Source: a virus | Length of the DNA: 64,000 nt | Direction: 5' to 3' (one strand) | Virus record (IMG/VR): IMGVR_UViG_3300034072_002256 | Coordinates: 11,274 to 75,273 of that record | Shown: piece by piece, positions 7,794 to 50,630 of the stretch | Numbering within the stretch: position 1 is the stretch's first letter | Layout: each line of letters opens with the position of its first letter | Translations under genes and position numbers: made by a program | The notes under the pieces: model-generated | The model's database searches: none | Seen by the model: the letters and a program-made list of their open reading frames with translations, nothing else | Told to the model about the DNA's origin: nothing

Positions 7794-9362
7794 ATGAAAC
7801 GACAATCACCCATCCTCGACCGCTGGGGCAAACCCATCAATATTGACCTTGAAGTGCCGCAGACCAAAGATGAAGCCGCGCTGGCACACCTGCAAAGCCA
7901 CTACGGCGGGCACCCATCGTCTGGCCTGACTCCGGGCCGTATTGCAGCAATATTAAAAGATGCCGAACGCGGCAACCTGATTGCTCAGTGCGAACTGGCC
8001 GAGGATATGGAAGAGAAAGATGCTCATATCCAGTCTGAGTTGGGGAAACGCCGGCTGGCACTGATGTCTGTGCCCTGGAACATCACCGCGCCACCTGGTG
8101 CCAGCGCTGAAGAAAAGCGCGATGCAGAAATGATTGAATCACTGCTGCGCTCTGCGACCTGGCTTGATGATGCGATTTTTGATGCAGCAGATGCCATTCT
8201 AAAAGGCTTCAGCAATCAGGAACTGCATTGGGATTACATCGAGAACACGCATGTCATTGTGGGATGTGAGTGGACAGATCCAAGCTGGTTCCAGGTGCAT
8301 CCAAATGAACGCAACCAGCTGATGCTGCGCGATGGTAGTCATACCGGCATGGCCCTTCGCCAGTTCGGCTGGTTAAGCCATCGTGCGAAATCTAAAAGTG
8401 GCTACATTACCCGCACTGGTTTGGCCCGAGTTCTGGCATGGCCTTATCTGTTTAAAAACTACAGTGTGCGTGACTTGGCGGAATTTCTGGAGATTTACGG
8501 TTTGCCGCTTCGGATTGGTAAATATCCGGAAGGGGCCAGCCAGACAGAGAAAGCAACGTTACTTAGGGCCGTGATGTCGATTGGCCACAATGCCGGCGGC
8601 ATTATTCCCAAAGGTATGGAGATTGAGTTTGAGAAGGCCGCAGACGGGGCATCAGATCCGTTTATGGCGATGGTCGCCTGGGCGGAAAAGTCGCAGAGTA
8701 AAGCGATTCTGGGCGGAACGCTCACCAGCCAGGCTGACGGGAAAAGTTCGACTAATGCGCTTGGTAACGTGCATAACGATGTGCGTGAAGATATCCGTAA
8801 TGCCGATTTAAAAGCCCTTCAAAACAGCATTACACGGGACATTATTTATCCGTTGTATGCACTGAACTGTAAGAGTTACCAAAGCCCACACCGCCATCCG
8901 CGCTTTGAATTCGACACCTCAGAGGCTGAGGATTTATCTGCGCTGACATCACCGCTAAAAACTTTGGTGGAGTTGGGTATCCAAATCCCGCAAAGCTGGA
9001 TCCATGAAAAAGGGCGGATCCCGATGCCGGCCAACAATGAACCCGTGCTGACACTGCAGGCAGTAAAGACTGAGCCAGTCGAGCAGCTGCGAGGGGTTGC
9101 TGTATTAAAAGCGGACGTCAGTACCGATGACCAGACAGCAATTGAACATGCCCTGGATGCGCTATCGGCTGGTGAACTCAATACCGATATGGTGAGTGTA
9201 TTAAAGCCGCTGATGGCTTTGGCAGAGCAAGACCCGGATGGCCTTAGTGCCAAACTTGGCACTATCTGGCCTCAGATGGACGACCAGGCGCTGACAGAGC
9301 GGATTGCACAGGTCATGTTTGTGGCTGAATTGTGGGGGCAGGTGAATGCCGAAGCCATTTAG
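7794..9362 (+). CDS. Portal protein (Mu gp29/DUF935-like)
   Basis: EEKDAHI, FKNYSVRDLAEFLEIYGLP.RIGKYP, SKAILGGTLT, ALGNVHN motifs. Confidence 0.92.
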   Translation: MKRQSPILDRWGKPINIDLEVPQTKDEAALAHLQSHYGGHPSSGLTPGRIAAILKDAERGNLIAQCELAEDMEEKDAHIQSELGKRRLALMSVPWNITAPPGASAEEKRDAEMIESLLRSATWLDDAIFDAADAILKGFSNQELHWDYIENTHVIVGCEWTDPSWFQVHPNERNQLMLRDGSHTGMALRQFGWLSHRAKSKSGYITRTGLARVLAWPYLFKNYSVRDLAEFLEIYGLPLRIGKYPEGASQTEKATLLRAVMSIGHNAGGIIPKGMEIEFEKAADGASDPFMAMVAWAEKSQSKAILGGTLTSQADGKSSTNALGNVHNDVREDIRNADLKALQNSITRDIIYPLYALNCKSYQSPHRHPRFEFDTSEAEDLSALTSPLKTLVELGIQIPQSWIHEKGRIPMPANNEPVLTLQAVKTEPVEQLRGVAVLKADVSTDDQTAIEHALDALSAGELNTDMVSVLKPLMALAEQDPDGLSAKLGTIWPQMDDQALTERIAQVMFVAELWGQVNAEAI

Positions 9363-10671
9363 CCTGGCATCCGCTTTTGGTATGCCACCCAAAGATGCGG
9401 TGGCCTACTTTCGGGCCAAAGGCTATGCCGTCTCTGATAACTGGTGGGAAGTCTGGCAGGCGTCTCATGCCAGAGCATTTACCGTGGCCAAAGCCATGCG
9501 AATGGATGTGCTGACCACTATCCGGGCAGAGCTGGACAGAGCTATGTCTCAGGGCAGAACGGCAGACCAGTTCGCAAAAGACCTGGCGCCGACGTTAAAG
9601 AAGCTTGGTTGGTGGGGCAAGCAAATCTGGGCTGATGCAGCCGGTAATGCTCAGGAAGTGCAGCTTGGCAGCATGCACCGCCTACGCAACATCTACCGGG
9701 TCAATATGCAAACTGCGTACATGGCGGGCCGATATCGAGAGCAACTGGCCAATGTGGATGACCGGCCTTACTGGATGTATGTCGCTATTAAAGACAGCCA
9801 GACCCGGCCAAGTCATGCCAGGTTAAATGGTCGGATTTTTCGTTACGATGACCCTATCTGGAAACACATCTATCCACCAAACGGGTGGGGCTGTCGTTGC
9901 CGCGTTCGGGCATTGACCGAAGCCCAGGTGAAAAAGCTTGGCCGCTCTGTTGAAAACGGTGCTGGGTACATTGAAGAAATTAAGGCTGAAGCGGGCGTTG
10001 ATAAACGTACCGGCGAAGTGATCACCGTGGACCATGTTCGGATTAACTTACCGGGTGGAAAGAGTATGCAGCCGGATGTGGGCTGGGCCTATTCACCAGG
10101 GGAAGCCGGTTTCGGGACTGATGTGGCCATCGCACAAAAGCTGGCCCAAGCCAAAGACATCGACCTTCGCAGTCAGCTTATCCAATCTCTCAATAACAGC
10201 GAGCTTCGCCAGGCACAATTCGCCAACTGGGTGGACAAGGCGCTGGAGAATCGCCGGGCCGGGAATTCGGTGCAGACTCTGGGGTTCATGCAGGATTCTA
10301 TCCGCGATGTCGTCAACAACAAGCTCGGTATCGAGGCCAGTTATCTGATGGCCATCTCAGAAAAAGAGCTGCTGCATGCAGATAGCCCAAAACACCAGGC
10401 AAAAGGCGTCACGTTAAGTGCGACTGAGTATCAGCAATTACCAATGCTGCTGCAGCAGGCTGAAGCGGTGCTTTGGGATAAGGCGAATAATAATCTGATG
10501 TATGTGTTGCCATCGGTTGATGGTCAGGCCATTAAGATAATCGTCAACGCGAACTGGCAGATGAAGAAACAGCCACAGCTTTTAAACGCGGTGATCAATG
10601 TGTACAAAGTGCAGTGGGAAATGCTCGGTGGTGAGCAGTATGAAGCCATTCAGGGGAAATTGAGCAGGTAA
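9346..10671 (+). CDS. MuF (gpF) head morphogenesis protein with C-terminal BECR/PBECR-like extension
   Basis: AFTVAK, D..TRPSH..L.G, PPNGWGCRCRV MuF motifs; C-terminal ISEKELLH...KH...LP.LL.....VLWD pattern. Confidence 0.85.
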   Translation: MPKPFSLASAFGMPPKDAVAYFRAKGYAVSDNWWEVWQASHARAFTVAKAMRMDVLTTIRAELDRAMSQGRTADQFAKDLAPTLKKLGWWGKQIWADAAGNAQEVQLGSMHRLRNIYRVNMQTAYMAGRYREQLANVDDRPYWMYVAIKDSQTRPSHARLNGRIFRYDDPIWKHIYPPNGWGCRCRVRALTEAQVKKLGRSVENGAGYIEEIKAEAGVDKRTGEVITVDHVRINLPGGKSMQPDVGWAYSPGEAGFGTDVAIAQKLAQAKDIDLRSQLIQSLNNSELRQAQFANWVDKALENRRAGNSVQTLGFMQDSIRDVVNNKLGIEASYLMAISEKELLHADSPKHQAKGVTLSATEYQQLPMLLQQAEAVLWDKANNNLMYVLPSVDGQAIKIIVNANWQMKKQPQLLNAVINVYKVQWEMLGGEQYEAIQGKLSR

Positions 10672-10739
10672 CGGTGGGCCTCGAACCTCACACTCCCAAC
10701 GCATAGCGACGGCGATTTACCAATTAATCGTACGTTACC
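10667..10739 (-). ncRNA. tRNA-like (pseudo-tRNA) small RNA antisense to the MuF 3' end
   Basis: Minus strand: GGTAACG TAC GATT AATTGGTA AATC G CCGTC GCTATGC GTTGG GAGT GTG(A)GG TTCGAGG CCCAC CGTTACC. Perfect acceptor stem, D-loop GG, GTTCGA T-loop; imperfect anticodon arm; no encoded CCA. Confidence 0.75.
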
Positions 10740-10749
10740 TGTCCCCATC

Positions 10750-10778
10750 AGTATAAATCGAGGATAGAAAATGACCAA
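10750..10778 (-). promoter_or_regulatory. sigma70-like promoter for the tRNA-like RNA
   Basis: Minus strand TTGGTC-17bp-TATACT, with the -10 box ending 10 nt before the acceptor stem. Confidence 0.6.
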
Positions 10779-11229
10779 CCCCTTTGTGGTCGAACATAAC
10801 TTTGATGAGCTGTCGGCTGCATTAACTGGCCTGCAGCATCGTGCTGAAGATTTAACACCAGCCATGCGCAAGATTGGCGGCCTTTTGTCTGACATCACAG
10901 AAGAAGCTTTTGAAACGGAGTCTGATCCGGTAACCGGTGAATCCTGGCCGTGGCTGTCTGAAAACTACTTAAAGCGCCGACCAAACCGACGCAATGGCCA
11001 AATGCTACAGGCAAGTGCCGGCGGTCTGGCATCGAGCATCGCAGTCGATACAGGGGACATCTGGGCACAGATTGGCAGCAACAAACCTTATGCTGCTATA
11101 CACCAGTACGGCGGCACCGATGATATGGCGCCAGGACCAGCTGCTATTCCTGCCCGGCCTTATCTTGGCTTTGGAGAAAGCCACCATGATGAGATAGTCG
11201 GGATCATCAGAACTTATATTGAAGGGTGA
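10771..11229 (+). CDS. Mu gpG-like virion morphogenesis protein
   Basis: F..E.DP..G..W..LS, IGSNKPYAAIHQYGG, IPARPYLG motifs. Confidence 0.9.
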   Translation: MTNPFVVEHNFDELSAALTGLQHRAEDLTPAMRKIGGLLSDITEEAFETESDPVTGESWPWLSENYLKRRPNRRNGQMLQASAGGLASSIAVDTGDIWAQIGSNKPYAAIHQYGGTDDMAPGPAAIPARPYLGFGESHHDEIVGIIRTYIEG

Positions 11230-11350
11230 TTGTTACAGCGACGCACAGGAACGATTTTGGCGGCCTGTATTCGGATTTGGTGTCGTTGGGTTAAGTAGAC
11301 ATGCCTTGACTGTGTATGGCAGATTTAAAGGCCTATTAAACGGCATAAAA
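11230..11350. other. Candidate strong gyrase site (G-I intergenic, near genome centre)
   Basis: Position matches the Mu SGS; shares CGC..(N)GAA.CGATTT and TTTAAA-N5-TTAAACGG-like blocks with P2 51077-51175. Confidence 0.4.
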
Positions 11351-47362: not shown

Positions 47363-48927
47363 TGCAAACAGATAAAAATGGCACCATGTTCCGGGTGCGA
47401 GAGAAACAAAAACAGACCGATAACAGCCCGCGCATTCTGCAGCTGCGCCGGGAGTTCGCCGAACATCCAAGCCGTGGTTTAACGCCGATGACTCTGGCGG
47501 CCATTATGACGGATGCAGAGCAGGGCAACTTACTGGCGCAGTGTTACCTGGCTGAAGACGTTGAAGAAAAAGACGGCCATATCTATGCCGAGCTGTTCAA
47601 ACGCCGGATGGCGCTGACCAGTGTGCCGTATCGTATTGAACCACCACGCAACGCCAGTGCCCAGGAAAAGAAAGACGCCGCCACCTACAACGATGTGTTG
47701 TCCGATATCCCCAACTTTGAAGATGTGATCTTCAATATGGCCGACGGTATTTTAAAGGGCTTCAGCAATCTGGAGTTTCACTGGGAGCGCTATAACGACT
47801 TTCGCTTGCCGGCGGATTTTCAGCACCGGCCGGCTACATGGTTCCAGTTATCTCCGCATAATCAGGACCAGTTGGTGCTGCGTAACGGCACTTCTGAAGG
47901 CGAAGCGCTGGCGCAGTTCGGCTGGATCCAGCATCGCCACGCTGCCAAAAGTGGTTACGTCGCCCGCACAGGTTTGATTCGCCAATTAGCCTGGCCATTT
48001 ATCTTTAAGAACTATTCGGTACGAGACCTTGCCGAGTTCTTGGAGATCTATGGCATCCCGATCCGGATTGGTAAATATCCGGCCGGCGCCAGTGATGATG
48101 AAAAGAACCGGCTGCTGCAGGCCGTCTGGAGTGTTGGCCACAACAGTGCCGGCATTATGCCAAAGGGCATGGAAATGGATTTTGTCGAAGCGGCCAAAGG
48201 CGGCGGCGATCCGTTTTTGAGCATGATGTCCTGGTGTGAGCGCGTCCAATCCAAGGTTATTTTGGGCCAGACATTAACAGCACAGGTTGACAGTACCGGC
48301 AGCCAGGCGCTGGGGAATGTACACAATGAAGTCCGGCTTGATATCCGAAATCATGACTTGCGCCAACTGGCCAGCACGCTAAATCGCGATTTACTGTGGC
48401 CAATGCATATGCTGAACGGCAAATCGTACACCGGCGACCCGCGCCGGATGCCGCAGCTGAAATTTGATATCGAGGAAGCCGAAGATATCAAGCTGTTCAG
48501 TGAAGCGTTGCCAGCTTTGGCCAATGCCGGTATGAGGATCCCAACAGCCTGGGCACATCAAAAATTATCAATCCCGTTACCGGAGAACGACGAACCGGTG
48601 CTGGGAGCACAAGCACCAGTTGTACCAGCAAAAGAGAAAGCGGCAGCGCTGACAAGGGCCATAGCCAGCCTGAAAGCCGAATTGCCTGAACAAGACATTG
48701 CTGACCAGCTTGCGGCACAGCTGCGAGCAAAAGCAGCGCCAGTGATGGGCAAGTTGTTAAAGCCAATTGAAGAATTGGTCGCGAACGCCACCAGCCTGGA
48801 AGACTTGCTGCAGCAACTGCTGACACTTGAAGGCAAGCTGGATGAATCAGAACTGGCCGAAGTGATGCAGCTGGCGCTGAGTGCGGCAGAAATGGGTGGC
48901 CGGTTTGATGTTGCTGTGGGGAACTGA
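47362..48927 (+). CDS. Portal protein (DUF935-like)
   Basis: Likely start at the TAATG overlap 47362; FKNYSVRDLAEFLEIYG motif. Confidence 0.92.
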   Translation: MQTDKNGTMFRVREKQKQTDNSPRILQLRREFAEHPSRGLTPMTLAAIMTDAEQGNLLAQCYLAEDVEEKDGHIYAELFKRRMALTSVPYRIEPPRNASAQEKKDAATYNDVLSDIPNFEDVIFNMADGILKGFSNLEFHWERYNDFRLPADFQHRPATWFQLSPHNQDQLVLRNGTSEGEALAQFGWIQHRHAAKSGYVARTGLIRQLAWPFIFKNYSVRDLAEFLEIYGIPIRIGKYPAGASDDEKNRLLQAVWSVGHNSAGIMPKGMEMDFVEAAKGGGDPFLSMMSWCERVQSKVILGQTLTAQVDSTGSQALGNVHNEVRLDIRNHDLRQLASTLNRDLLWPMHMLNGKSYTGDPRRMPQLKFDIEEAEDIKLFSEALPALANAGMRIPTAWAHQKLSIPLPENDEPVLGAQAPVVPAKEKAAALTRAIASLKAELPEQDIADQLAAQLRAKAAPVMGKLLKPIEELVANATSLEDLLQQLLTLEGKLDESELAEVMQLALSAAEMGGRFDVAVGN

Positions 48928-50366
48928 TGCCAACACCACCCCCAAATACCGCTCAGTACGGCAGCTTGCCATTTAAAGAAGCCATCGCGTTTTTCCGGGC
49001 CAAAACCAATCTGCCCAGTGAGCGCTGGGCAGATATCTGGCGCGAGCAGCACAACGTCGGTTTTATGGTTGCCGGTGCGATGAAGACCGATTTACTGGCT
49101 GATTTACGCCAGGCGGTGGATGCAGCTATCGCCGAAGGGCGCAGTTTAAAGTGGTTTCAACGCGAGTTTAAAAACATTGTGAAACGCACCGGTTGGGAAC
49201 ATACCGGCGATGCCGCCTGGCGGGCGCGGACCATTTACGACACCAATATGCGCCAGGCTTATAACGCAGGTCGTTATCAGCAACTGCAGCAGTTTGAATT
49301 CTGGCGTTATGTGCATGGTGATAGCCGATATCCGCGCCCAGCACACCAGGCTAAACACGGCTTGGTTTTACCTAAGACTGCAGCCTTTTGGCAGGTATGG
49401 TTTCCGCAGAACGGCTGGGGCTGTAAGTGCAAAGTTATTGGCGAGACTAAACAAAGTCTGGAGCGAAAAGGCCTGAAGGTTTCCGACGAACCAGAAATCG
49501 AGCGCCGTGAATGGGTCGATAAAAAGACCGGCGAAGTGCACCTGGTACCAAAAGGCATTGATCCAGGGTTTGACTATGCACCCGGCGCAAGCAAACCCAG
49601 TGAGCAAGTAAAACAGCAACTGGATGACAAGTTACCTCTGGCAGAGCGTTTACCAGACCGGTTAGTTCCTTCAGCTTTTAGCACGGTGCCAGGTGTAAAT
49701 ATCCATCGGCTGAATGAGAAACTGACAGAACTCGCAGCAACCTCTGCTGGCCCACAAGTGCAGCTGTTGTCGCAGTTCCTGCAAAAGCATGACATCAAAA
49801 CGATGTTCATTACCCAAGCTCAGATGAACCCCAAGGCGATTGCGGCAGCCAAGCTACGTGGAGATATACAGGATTATCTCTCCAGCGAGTTGGGTTATCA
49901 CCCGATGAATCTGTATACACTCAGAGAGTTTGAGCAGGCTGCTGGGTTCACCGCGCCAGATTTTAATCACGTAGTGATTAAGGCCGGCGTAAGCTCGATG
50001 TTAAGTCGAACTGTTGTCAGTGAGTTGCAGCAAGCAGTAAATGCTGTGATAAGACTAAAAGCTGCGGAACGGCCGGCGTTTACGTTGTCAAATATTATTA
50101 GTAAGTACGCCACGAATGGCGAAGACGCAGTGTTGCTGACCAATTGGTTACATGAGATTGGCCACCAGTTGCATTATAAAACAGGTGGCGGCATACCAAA
50201 GTCTTTGAGCAAATATTGGCTAACCGAATATCAGCTGACCGATTATAAAGAATGGCACGCAGAATTGTTCACACTCTGGGTATTAGACCGGGCCGCGCTC
50301 GACGCATGGAATAAGGATGTTGCTGTATACTTCGATGCGCTGATGCGTCAAGTAATGGGAGGCTGA
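48927..50366 (+). CDS. MuF protein with C-terminal HExxH metallopeptidase-like toxin domain
   Basis: P.NGWGCKC MuF motif; HEIGHQ at about 50151 plus downstream EWHAE. Confidence 0.8.
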   Translation: MPTPPPNTAQYGSLPFKEAIAFFRAKTNLPSERWADIWREQHNVGFMVAGAMKTDLLADLRQAVDAAIAEGRSLKWFQREFKNIVKRTGWEHTGDAAWRARTIYDTNMRQAYNAGRYQQLQQFEFWRYVHGDSRYPRPAHQAKHGLVLPKTAAFWQVWFPQNGWGCKCKVIGETKQSLERKGLKVSDEPEIERREWVDKKTGEVHLVPKGIDPGFDYAPGASKPSEQVKQQLDDKLPLAERLPDRLVPSAFSTVPGVNIHRLNEKLTELAATSAGPQVQLLSQFLQKHDIKTMFITQAQMNPKAIAAAKLRGDIQDYLSSELGYHPMNLYTLREFEQAAGFTAPDFNHVVIKAGVSSMLSRTVVSELQQAVNAVIRLKAAERPAFTLSNIISKYATNGEDAVLLTNWLHEIGHQLHYKTGGGIPKSLSKYWLTEYQLTDYKEWHAELFTLWVLDRAALDAWNKDVAVYFDALMRQVMGG

Positions 50367-50369
50367 TAA

Positions 50370-50630
50370 ATGGCAATCGAAGACATTTTCACGATGCTGG
50401 AAAATGGCACCTATCCACCGGCGGAGCTAACGCCTTTGAGTGACCAGGCGTTTGCATTGTTAAAAACCGATCTGCCATTTAGGGAAAAGTGGATGCAGAT
50501 CCAAATATTGTCAAAGCAAGTACGCCGAGCAGGTGGTGAAGATGCAGACCGCTTTAAGTGGGTGATTGAATCGATTTATGCCGGTGCAACTGCAGAGGAA
50601 ATCAGCCTTATGCATGAGGACATAGTCTGA
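50370..50630 (+). CDS. Small acidic protein, putative MuF-toxin immunity protein
   Basis: GGAGG RBS; directly after MuF-CT; absent in P1. Confidence 0.6.
   Translation: MAIEDIFTMLENGTYPPAELTPLSDQAFALLKTDLPFREKWMQIQILSKQVRRAGGEDADRFKWVIESIYAGATAEEISLMHEDIV

Follow-up and report, generated by a model that had tools for sequence, protein, structure and literature searches.

A tRNA-shaped RNA gene evolutionarily coupled to the predicted RNase tail of the phage head protein MuF: a candidate RNA antidote

Type III toxin-antitoxin systems such as ToxIN, CptIN and TenpIN pair an endoribonuclease with an adjacent gene for a small structured RNA that neutralizes it by binding, and the loss of one partner accompanies the loss of the other. 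Here, we describe a locus with a comparable pairing, for which neutralization by binding is likewise proposed, in 64,000 nucleotides (nt) of viral DNA (the window; positions 11,274 to 75,273 of IMG/VR virus record IMGVR_UViG_3300034072_002256). The gene for the head protein MuF (gene F) of a Mu-like prophage is followed there, on the minus strand, by a gene for a 73-nt RNA shaped like a tRNA. The antitoxin RNA of type III systems consists of tandem short repeats, lies upstream of the toxin gene in the same operon and is processed by the toxin, whereas the RNA described here is tRNA-shaped, lies downstream on the opposite strand with a putative promoter of its own, and is usually single (three in a Catenovulum prophage) rather than part of a repeat array. 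Likewise, the type III toxin is a stand-alone ToxN-type protein, whereas the counterpart here would be a BECR-type tail of a virion protein.

Proteins of the MuF family reside inside the phage head and leave the virion together with the DNA. In the MuF polymorphic toxins and polyvalent proteins treated in two comparative studies (PMC5576092; PMC5512222), an N-terminal MuF domain is joined to a variable C-terminal effector, and a partner gene lies downstream. The downstream partner in those accounts encodes an immunity protein. The 75-kb provirus record analyzed here consists of two Mu-like prophages in tandem, head to tail; prophage 2 conforms to that pattern, whereas the corresponding slot of prophage 1 holds the RNA gene instead. 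Text searches of Jamet 2017 (PMC5576092) and Iyer 2017 (PMC5512222) found no RNA partner, and a literature search found no description of this RNA in print. The nearest published item, possibly related, is an unnamed candidate RNA, HMP2_10280, located near Capnocytophaga Phage_Mu_F genes (2021 supplement).

The RNA shares with canonical tRNA (RF00005) an acceptor helix, the U8-A9 dinucleotide, a D loop containing GG and a T loop with UUCGA. It differs in having neither the anticodon stem-loop of 5 base pairs (bp) and 7 nt nor U33, in carrying an extra nucleotide after A9, in its acceptor helix of 8-10 bp, and in lacking an encoded CCA. Non-decoding RNAs whose tRNA elbow and acceptor are recognized by tRNA-binding proteins include the tRNA-like domain of tmRNA, the Y RNA YrlA and the tRNA-Other of Bacillus cereus. 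Of these, YrlA has a permuted topology and Rsr as its partner, and tmRNA includes an mRNA module; to our knowledge, no connection with phage head proteins or BECR domains exists for any of the three. ImmD, the partner of colicin D, has been described as a tRNA-mimicking protein. The colicin D/ImmD pair (PDB 1tfk) resembles the arrangement considered here in that the partner covers the tRNA-binding site of a BECR-fold anticodon nuclease and thereby blocks it; that partner is a protein, whereas here it would be a tRNA-like RNA, and the match of the MuF tail to the colicin D fold is weak.

A conserved tRNA-shaped RNA gene at the F-G junction

A preliminary description of this DNA had proposed a minus-strand cloverleaf of 73 nt overlapping the MuF stop codon. 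The stop codon does lie inside the element, and the acceptor helix, D arm, T arm, extra nucleotide and missing CCA can all be read in the window copy. The acceptor helix comprises 7 bp (GGTAACG/CGTTACC), or 9 bp when extended (10665-10741); one extra C follows U8-A9, the D arm has the loop AAUUGGUA, and the T arm has the loop UUCGAGG with one bulged A in its stem. The anticodon arm, which had been called degenerate, lacks U33 and a 7-nt loop; it is a closed hairpin, CCG-U-CGC UAU GCG-U-UGG, with 7 bp, one U-U mismatch and a UAU triloop, and is itself backed by covariation. A tRNA finder had been expected to report a pseudo-tRNA here. ARAGORN found no tRNA in the window, Rfam gave no match to the window copy at E<=10, and the folding energy of this copy was not better than chance (z-score -0.34 against shuffles). 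None of these three approaches is able to detect this RNA family from one copy; a covariance model built from relatives does detect the element.

For that model, R1, nine copies of the RNA were used. MuF homologues 98-36% identical to that of the window were drawn from viral contigs, genomes, metagenomes and deposited phages, and a metagenome scan yielded only 2 further loci. Within the related DNA searched (~120 loci, ~780 kb), R1 matches were limited to the minus strand immediately 3' of MuF (~60 loci), and no comparable match lay away from the F-G junction in the window's own 75-kb record. Hosts of the carriers include Alishewanella, Alkalimonas, Catenovulum, Edwardsiella, Photorhabdus, Pasteurella and Escherichia coli.

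In an alignment of 37 distinct copies that was fitted to R1, which favors the structure, 94.2% of cells were paired, compared with 31-49% in slid controls; double, compensatory changes occurred in 20 of the 22 base pairs and were present in all four helices; and the covariation score was 0.645, against 0.217 for shuffles (none of 500 reached the observed value) and 0.07-0.15 for slid controls. Compensation is already visible in the raw sequence, as when GGTAACG/CGTTACC is compared with GCTAATG/CATTAGC. On the minus-strand reading, G:U pairs outnumber A:C pairs 70 to 9, and the minus strand is therefore taken to be the RNA. The element is thus conserved, with covariation, beside homologous MuF tails, and is a covarying minus-strand tRNA mimic rather than a decayed fragment of a host tRNA.

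Members of the family share an acceptor helix of 7-10 bp, the U8-A9 dinucleotide followed by an additional C, GG in the D loop and UUCGA in the T loop. The equivalent of the anticodon arm varies from 14 to 34 nt among the 37 copies, and 29 of 36 predicted terminal loops are 3-4 nt long, among them UUCG, UCCG, CUUG, GAAA and GCAA, along with the UAU of the window. Judged by its sequence, a tRNA-shaped RNA of this kind cannot decode. The copy at locus L006 exceeds the Rfam tRNA threshold (36.7 bits), as do some other relatives. R1 also matches host tRNA-Trp, tRNA-Arg and tRNA-Gly (42-45 bits), none of which stands out as the parent, and searching E. coli genomes with the RNA for a similar host tRNA returned only further copies of the element. 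The overlap with the MuF stop codon recurs in some relatives; it is absent from L010, where MuF ends ~20 nt earlier, and from L016. One Catenovulum agarivorans prophage has three tandem tRNA-like genes in a single F-G gap (L014:3861-4165), whereas its sister phage L015 has one. These data make a new family of non-decoding tRNA-like RNAs well supported, and the element is very probably a real, separately transcribed RNA gene.

A minus-strand -10 box (TATACT, TATAAT, TAAAAT or TATAGT) lies 6-12 nt upstream of the RNA. A match of at least five of six positions to TATAAT, no more than 22 nt upstream, was present on the minus strand in 20 of 26 relatives and on the plus strand in 5 of 26, against a background of 2.2%. 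Of the promoter first proposed, TTGGTC-17-TATACT, the -10 element is thus conserved; TTGGTC was rejected as a -35 box, since it is the reverse complement of the start of gene G (ATGACCAA) and its spacing is not kept in relatives. In a Photorhabdus tasmaniensis prophage, a terminator hairpin with a U-run, present on the minus strand only, separates the RNA 3' end from the MuF stop (L016:3824-3854). Assembled contigs from E. coli RNA libraries (runs from three studies) cover the element, extend ~270-350 nt into MuF and break at 2603-2679, near the RNA 5' side; they are unstranded and may include DNA. Together with the conserved -10 box, they give a weak hint that the RNA is made in the lysogen. 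With a promoter facing against the late operon, the RNA could be expressed soon after infection as well as in lysogens.

Joint gain and loss of the RNA gene and the MuF histidine motif

The MuF_C domain has been classed as a PBECR (phage BECR RNase) domain with a catalytic histidine in its first helix, and the copy in phage Mu itself has been called inactive, by Iyer et al. 2017 (PMC5512222). MuF_C was matched by 25 of 37 aligned relatives of the window protein (best 5.7e-10), and relatives in databases carry precomputed PF18819 assignments. In an AlphaFold model of the prophage 1 tail (pLDDT 83.6), H344 and H350 fall in model helix 40-46/49-54 and Y420-K421 on the C-terminal strand; these residues are lost in Mu.

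The association of these residues with the RNA gene was scored on 50 MuF sequences, comprising 34 RNA carriers and 16 non-carriers. H344, H350 and Y/F420 are kept in all 34 carriers (L-x-H-A-D-S-x-K-H ... N-x-Y-K/R), and H344 is lost in all 16 non-carriers, most of which have also changed residue 420 (it is kept in L044 as F and in L045 as Y). Neither the histidine without the RNA nor the RNA without the histidine was seen among the 50. One candidate exception with the histidine and no RNA, L108, was set aside, as its contig diverges inside MuF and is hence uninformative. Where the RNA gene is missing, the stop codon of F in many relatives directly adjoins the start of G. Both RNA and histidine motif are present in Pasteurella Pmp9 and in E. 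coli Mu-like prophages, and both are absent from phage Mu, a Yersinia Mu-type phage and Shewanella MuM16-1.

When mapped on a tree restricted to the N-terminal 260 MuF columns, the presence of the RNA switches 8-11 times, and the eight independent contrasts all agree in direction (sign test p = 0.0078). Close pairs allow the lesions to be located. L041 and L045 are colinear through the tail, and L045 has a scrambled motif and a clean deletion of ~130 nt that removes the RNA gene; L043 and L044, whose DNA is otherwise colinear, differ by separate lesions that include a change of CAC to GAT in L044. The lesions in motif and RNA gene of such close pairs are ~270 nt apart. Where the RNA is missing, the tail has diverged more quickly than the N-terminal domain, as in one comparison with 87% identity in the N-terminal part and 44% in the tail. 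Evolutionary coupling of the RNA gene to the predicted active site is well supported by this sequence comparison. Such joint gain and loss is expected of a toxin-immunity or an enzyme-partner pair, and a functional dependence between the RNA and MuF-C catalysis is likely.

Possible functions of the RNA

The RNA is probably the RNA partner of the MuF-C enzyme. A quite possible arrangement, and the one that we tentatively favor, is a two-part module of RNA-based immunity in which the MuF-C RNase is countered by the tRNA-shaped RNA as an uncleavable pseudo-substrate; that the RNA acts specifically as inhibitor or antidote of MuF-C is a possibility to be held with similar reserve. MuF would end in a MuF_C/PBECR domain, a predicted BECR-fold RNase with H344, H350 and Y420 in its active site, and this tail would be an active enzyme acting on tRNA. 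The RNA, encoded backward behind its own sigma-70 -10 box, would use the tRNA parts that it retains (acceptor helix, D and T arms, elbow) to occupy the tRNA-binding surface of MuF-C; its anticodon stem-loop being replaced by a capped hairpin, it would not be cleavable. The RNase would thus be kept harmless in the cell that makes the virions, in the new lysogen and in lysogens hit by related phages. On entry into a naive cell, by contrast, the injected enzyme would be unrestrained and could cleave its target, probably tRNA. Such a scheme would be akin to type III toxin-antitoxin systems, built on tRNA mimicry. The RNA gene's own opposing promoter, its place in the usual immunity slot and the orphan copies on a putative satellite (see below) make an antidote acting in trans more plausible, without proving it, than a cofactor, a regulator that works by antisense or a decoy unrelated to MuF, and action in trans is also argued for by the antisense overlap with MuF, which is not conserved (it is absent from L010 and L016).

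Several points weigh against this arrangement. RNA binding, toxicity and cleavage by MuF-C, as well as transcription of the RNA gene, are properties that we infer. The RNase assignment itself draws on a Pfam match that is weak for the window protein and stronger for relatives, on a single comparative paper and on a weak structural match: the window protein scores 23.2-25 bits against MuF_C (PF18819), below the cut-off of 27.6; Foldseek found no match for the tail model in the PDB; and a profile search of PDB sequences with the tail returned only a spurious match to NHL repeats. The best neighbor of the model in VIA-align was the RelE-like RNase toxin BrnT, a weak match (Z 5.1, 75 residues aligned), followed further down the list by colicin D (Z 4.0 and 3.4), RelE, HigB, MafB and CdiA-CT (Z 3.3-4.0), low values that are merely consistent with a BECR assignment of the model. 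The BECR/PBECR-like character that the preliminary description had read from the motif pattern is supported by the Pfam family, weakly for the window protein and clearly for its relatives, and by the published classification; the expected fold was returned by VIA-align as the weak BrnT match and by Foldseek not at all. Nor is the need for an antidote obvious, given the few MuF copies per virion, and from the variable length of the middle arm it follows that an anticodon loop is not maintained, but not that the RNA evades cleavage. Finally, the RNA gene abuts the tail, and one recombination could swap both. Tails are 33-45% identical in five of the nine carrier/non-carrier pairs compared, a divergence that fits allele replacement, and the count of genuinely independent events may be 3-4 instead of 8.

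That RNA and MuF-C are obligate partners in which the RNA is no inhibitor, and is instead a substrate matured by MuF-C, a cofactor or specificity subunit, or virion cargo, is an unlikely alternative but one that shares much of the evidence with an antidote. The joint loss of RNA and histidine motif fits any obligate partnership equally well, the direction of the relationship being indistinguishable, and some BECR toxins need tRNA-containing complexes, with a CdiA-CT/EF-Tu entry in the fold list. Orphan RNA copies on an island without MuF nevertheless fit protection in trans better than a cofactor; the consistently closed anticodon loop suits a non-cleavable mimic; and a gene immediately behind a toxin-type tail stands where immunity genes classically lie, a slot occupied by a small open reading frame (ORF) in prophage 2. 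Less probable again is an independent accessory gene, or moron, that is merely linked to MuF and serves as a decoy against host tRNA-targeting defenses or toxins, or as a regulator in the lysogen. Its own promoter opposite in orientation to the late operon, its patchy presence among relatives, its copies on another mobile element and the strongly different tails of several carrier/non-carrier pairs, as cassette exchange predicts, would all suit such a gene. Yet the complete concordance of all 50 cases, among them close pairs in which two lesions lie ~270 nt apart, does not, and an unrelated decoy should outlive inactivation of the tail and sometimes sit elsewhere, whereas R1 copies were confined to the F-G junction in the ~120 loci and the 75 kb of the window's own record. 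A decoy for host anticodon nucleases had been offered earlier as an alternative; it leaves the joint loss with the MuF histidine unexplained.

Two further readings are less probable still. One, very improbable, is that the element is a cis-antisense, type I-like regulator of MuF mRNA, with the tRNA shape as a stabilizing or processing module; it would account for the overlap with the MuF stop in the window and some relatives, and the E. coli RNA-library contigs that reach into MuF are a weak hint in its direction, being unstranded. There is, however, no overlap in L010, a terminator separates RNA and MuF in Photorhabdus, the orphan copies have no MuF with which to pair, and antisense pairing needs neither a conserved D-loop GG nor a T-loop UUCGA. 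The other, hardly probable at all, is a decaying captured tRNA, or a structure in the plus-strand mRNA such as a site of processing or attenuation in the F-G gap, the element then lacking any function as an RNA of its own. The silence of ARAGORN and Rfam on the window copy, its ordinary folding energy and the PGAP label "tRNA-OTHER" given to E. coli copies speak for this reading, but compensatory changes have accumulated in four helices across MuF lineages 36-98% identical to that of the window, and the capped hairpins are maintained rather than decayed. The excess of G:U over A:C pairs and the -10 box conserved on the minus strand likewise speak against a plus-strand structure.

Were the RNA an antidote of MuF-C, it would be one of new design, mimicking a whole tRNA rather than consisting of repeats or antisense sequence, and would act on a BECR/polymorphic-toxin class so far known with protein immunity only and on a target that sits on a protein travelling inside the phage head. 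It would also assign a role to what is annotated as "tRNA-OTHER" in ~4% of the complete genomes of E. coli and in numerous further Gammaproteobacteria, would indicate that the MuF tail, whose function has long been a mystery, targets tRNA, and would suggest that phage satellites carry orphan RNA immunity. The broader proposition is rather doubtful: that Mu-like phages shield themselves, their lysogens and their satellites from an injected BECR tRNase by a sealed-loop tRNA-shaped RNA, as a general rule under which each histidine-bearing tail has its own backward RNA (L143 and L140, below, being candidate cases) and the orphan island copies provide immunity against foreign phages.

Genomic setting and wider distribution

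Prophages 1 and 2 are largely alike in their early and late modules and differ in their MuF tails. The late operon of prophage 1 runs from portal through MuF to G (Table 1), and its F-G gap of ~100 nt (10672-10770) holds no plus-strand ORF of at least 40 amino acids (aa), the RNA gene sitting there instead. In prophage 2 (48927-50630, a stretch that takes in the following ORF), MuF has an N-terminal domain in common with that of prophage 1 and an unrelated tail with a HEIGH (HExxH-type) motif, and an 86-aa acidic ORF at 50370-50630 fills the slot held by the RNA gene in prophage 1. The contrast first noted between the two prophages, a different MuF C-terminus with a small ORF in one and an RNA without an ORF in the other, thus stands, and the single R1 match in the window places the RNA gene in prophage 1 only.

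Table 1. Features of the F-G region of prophage 1, in window coordinates
Feature	Position	Strand	Basis or remark
Mu portal gene	7794-9362	+	adjoins MuF
MuF (gp30-like minor head protein), 441 aa	9346-10671	+	ORF; Pfam Phage_Mu_F 7.7e-29, residues 58-187; MuF_C residues 348-421
MuF_C / PBECR-type predicted RNase domain, ~residues 325-441	10318-10668	+	Pfam; structure model
Codons for H344-A-D-S-P-K-H350, predicted active-site histidines	10375-10395	+	read from sequence
Codons for Y420-K421, N-x-[YF]-[KRQ] motif	10603-10608	+	alignment of relatives
Gene for 73-nt tRNA-shaped RNA with closed anticodon-arm hairpin	10667-10739	-	model R1 76.8 bits, E 5e-16; covariation
MuF stop codon TAA	10669-10671	+	within 3' acceptor strand of RNA gene
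-10 box TATACT	10750-10755	-	10 nt upstream of RNA 5' end
G (virion morphogenesis) gene	10771-11229	+	Pfam Phage_tail_S 5.2e-34

Beyond the reach of R1, which missed both, divergent cloverleaf RNAs with a closed middle hairpin occupy the F-G junction of two distant phages that keep the first histidine, Pasteurella phage AFS-2018a (L160:1952-2030, minus strand) and Campylobacter phage CAM-P21 (L161:1678-1766, minus strand). The cloverleaf stretch of CAM-P21 is partly annotated as a 30-aa hypothetical protein. Structures of other kinds lie in the gap behind two other histidine-bearing MuF tails. On the minus strand of L143 (2467-2599), a multi-hairpin structure ends in a U-run, with a promoter-like site, TTGACT-17-TATATT, before its 10-bp closing helix; a different multi-hairpin structure on the minus strand of L140 (2392-2572) ends in a terminator hairpin with a U-run. 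Backward RNA genes behind MuF tails may thus be a wider rule.

The element is present in ~230 of 5426 complete E. coli genomes (~4%), where PGAP labels it "tRNA-OTHER". In E. coli strain 48, an 8.5-kb P4-like island inserted at tRNA-Ile (L158:5986-14334; NZ_CP166879.1 705985-714333) has no MuF; it encodes an integrase, Ash, three Icd-like proteins, a RepA-type helicase, SSB, PerC and a Mor-family activator, and ends in two tandem orphan copies of the RNA, one of which PGAP calls tRNA-Tyr. Its gene content makes the island a candidate satellite of Mu-like helpers, and the orphan RNA copies may be seen, by analogy, as parallels of orphan immunity genes. The P4-like island with orphan RNA copies was found in 14 of the 5426 complete E. 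coli genomes.

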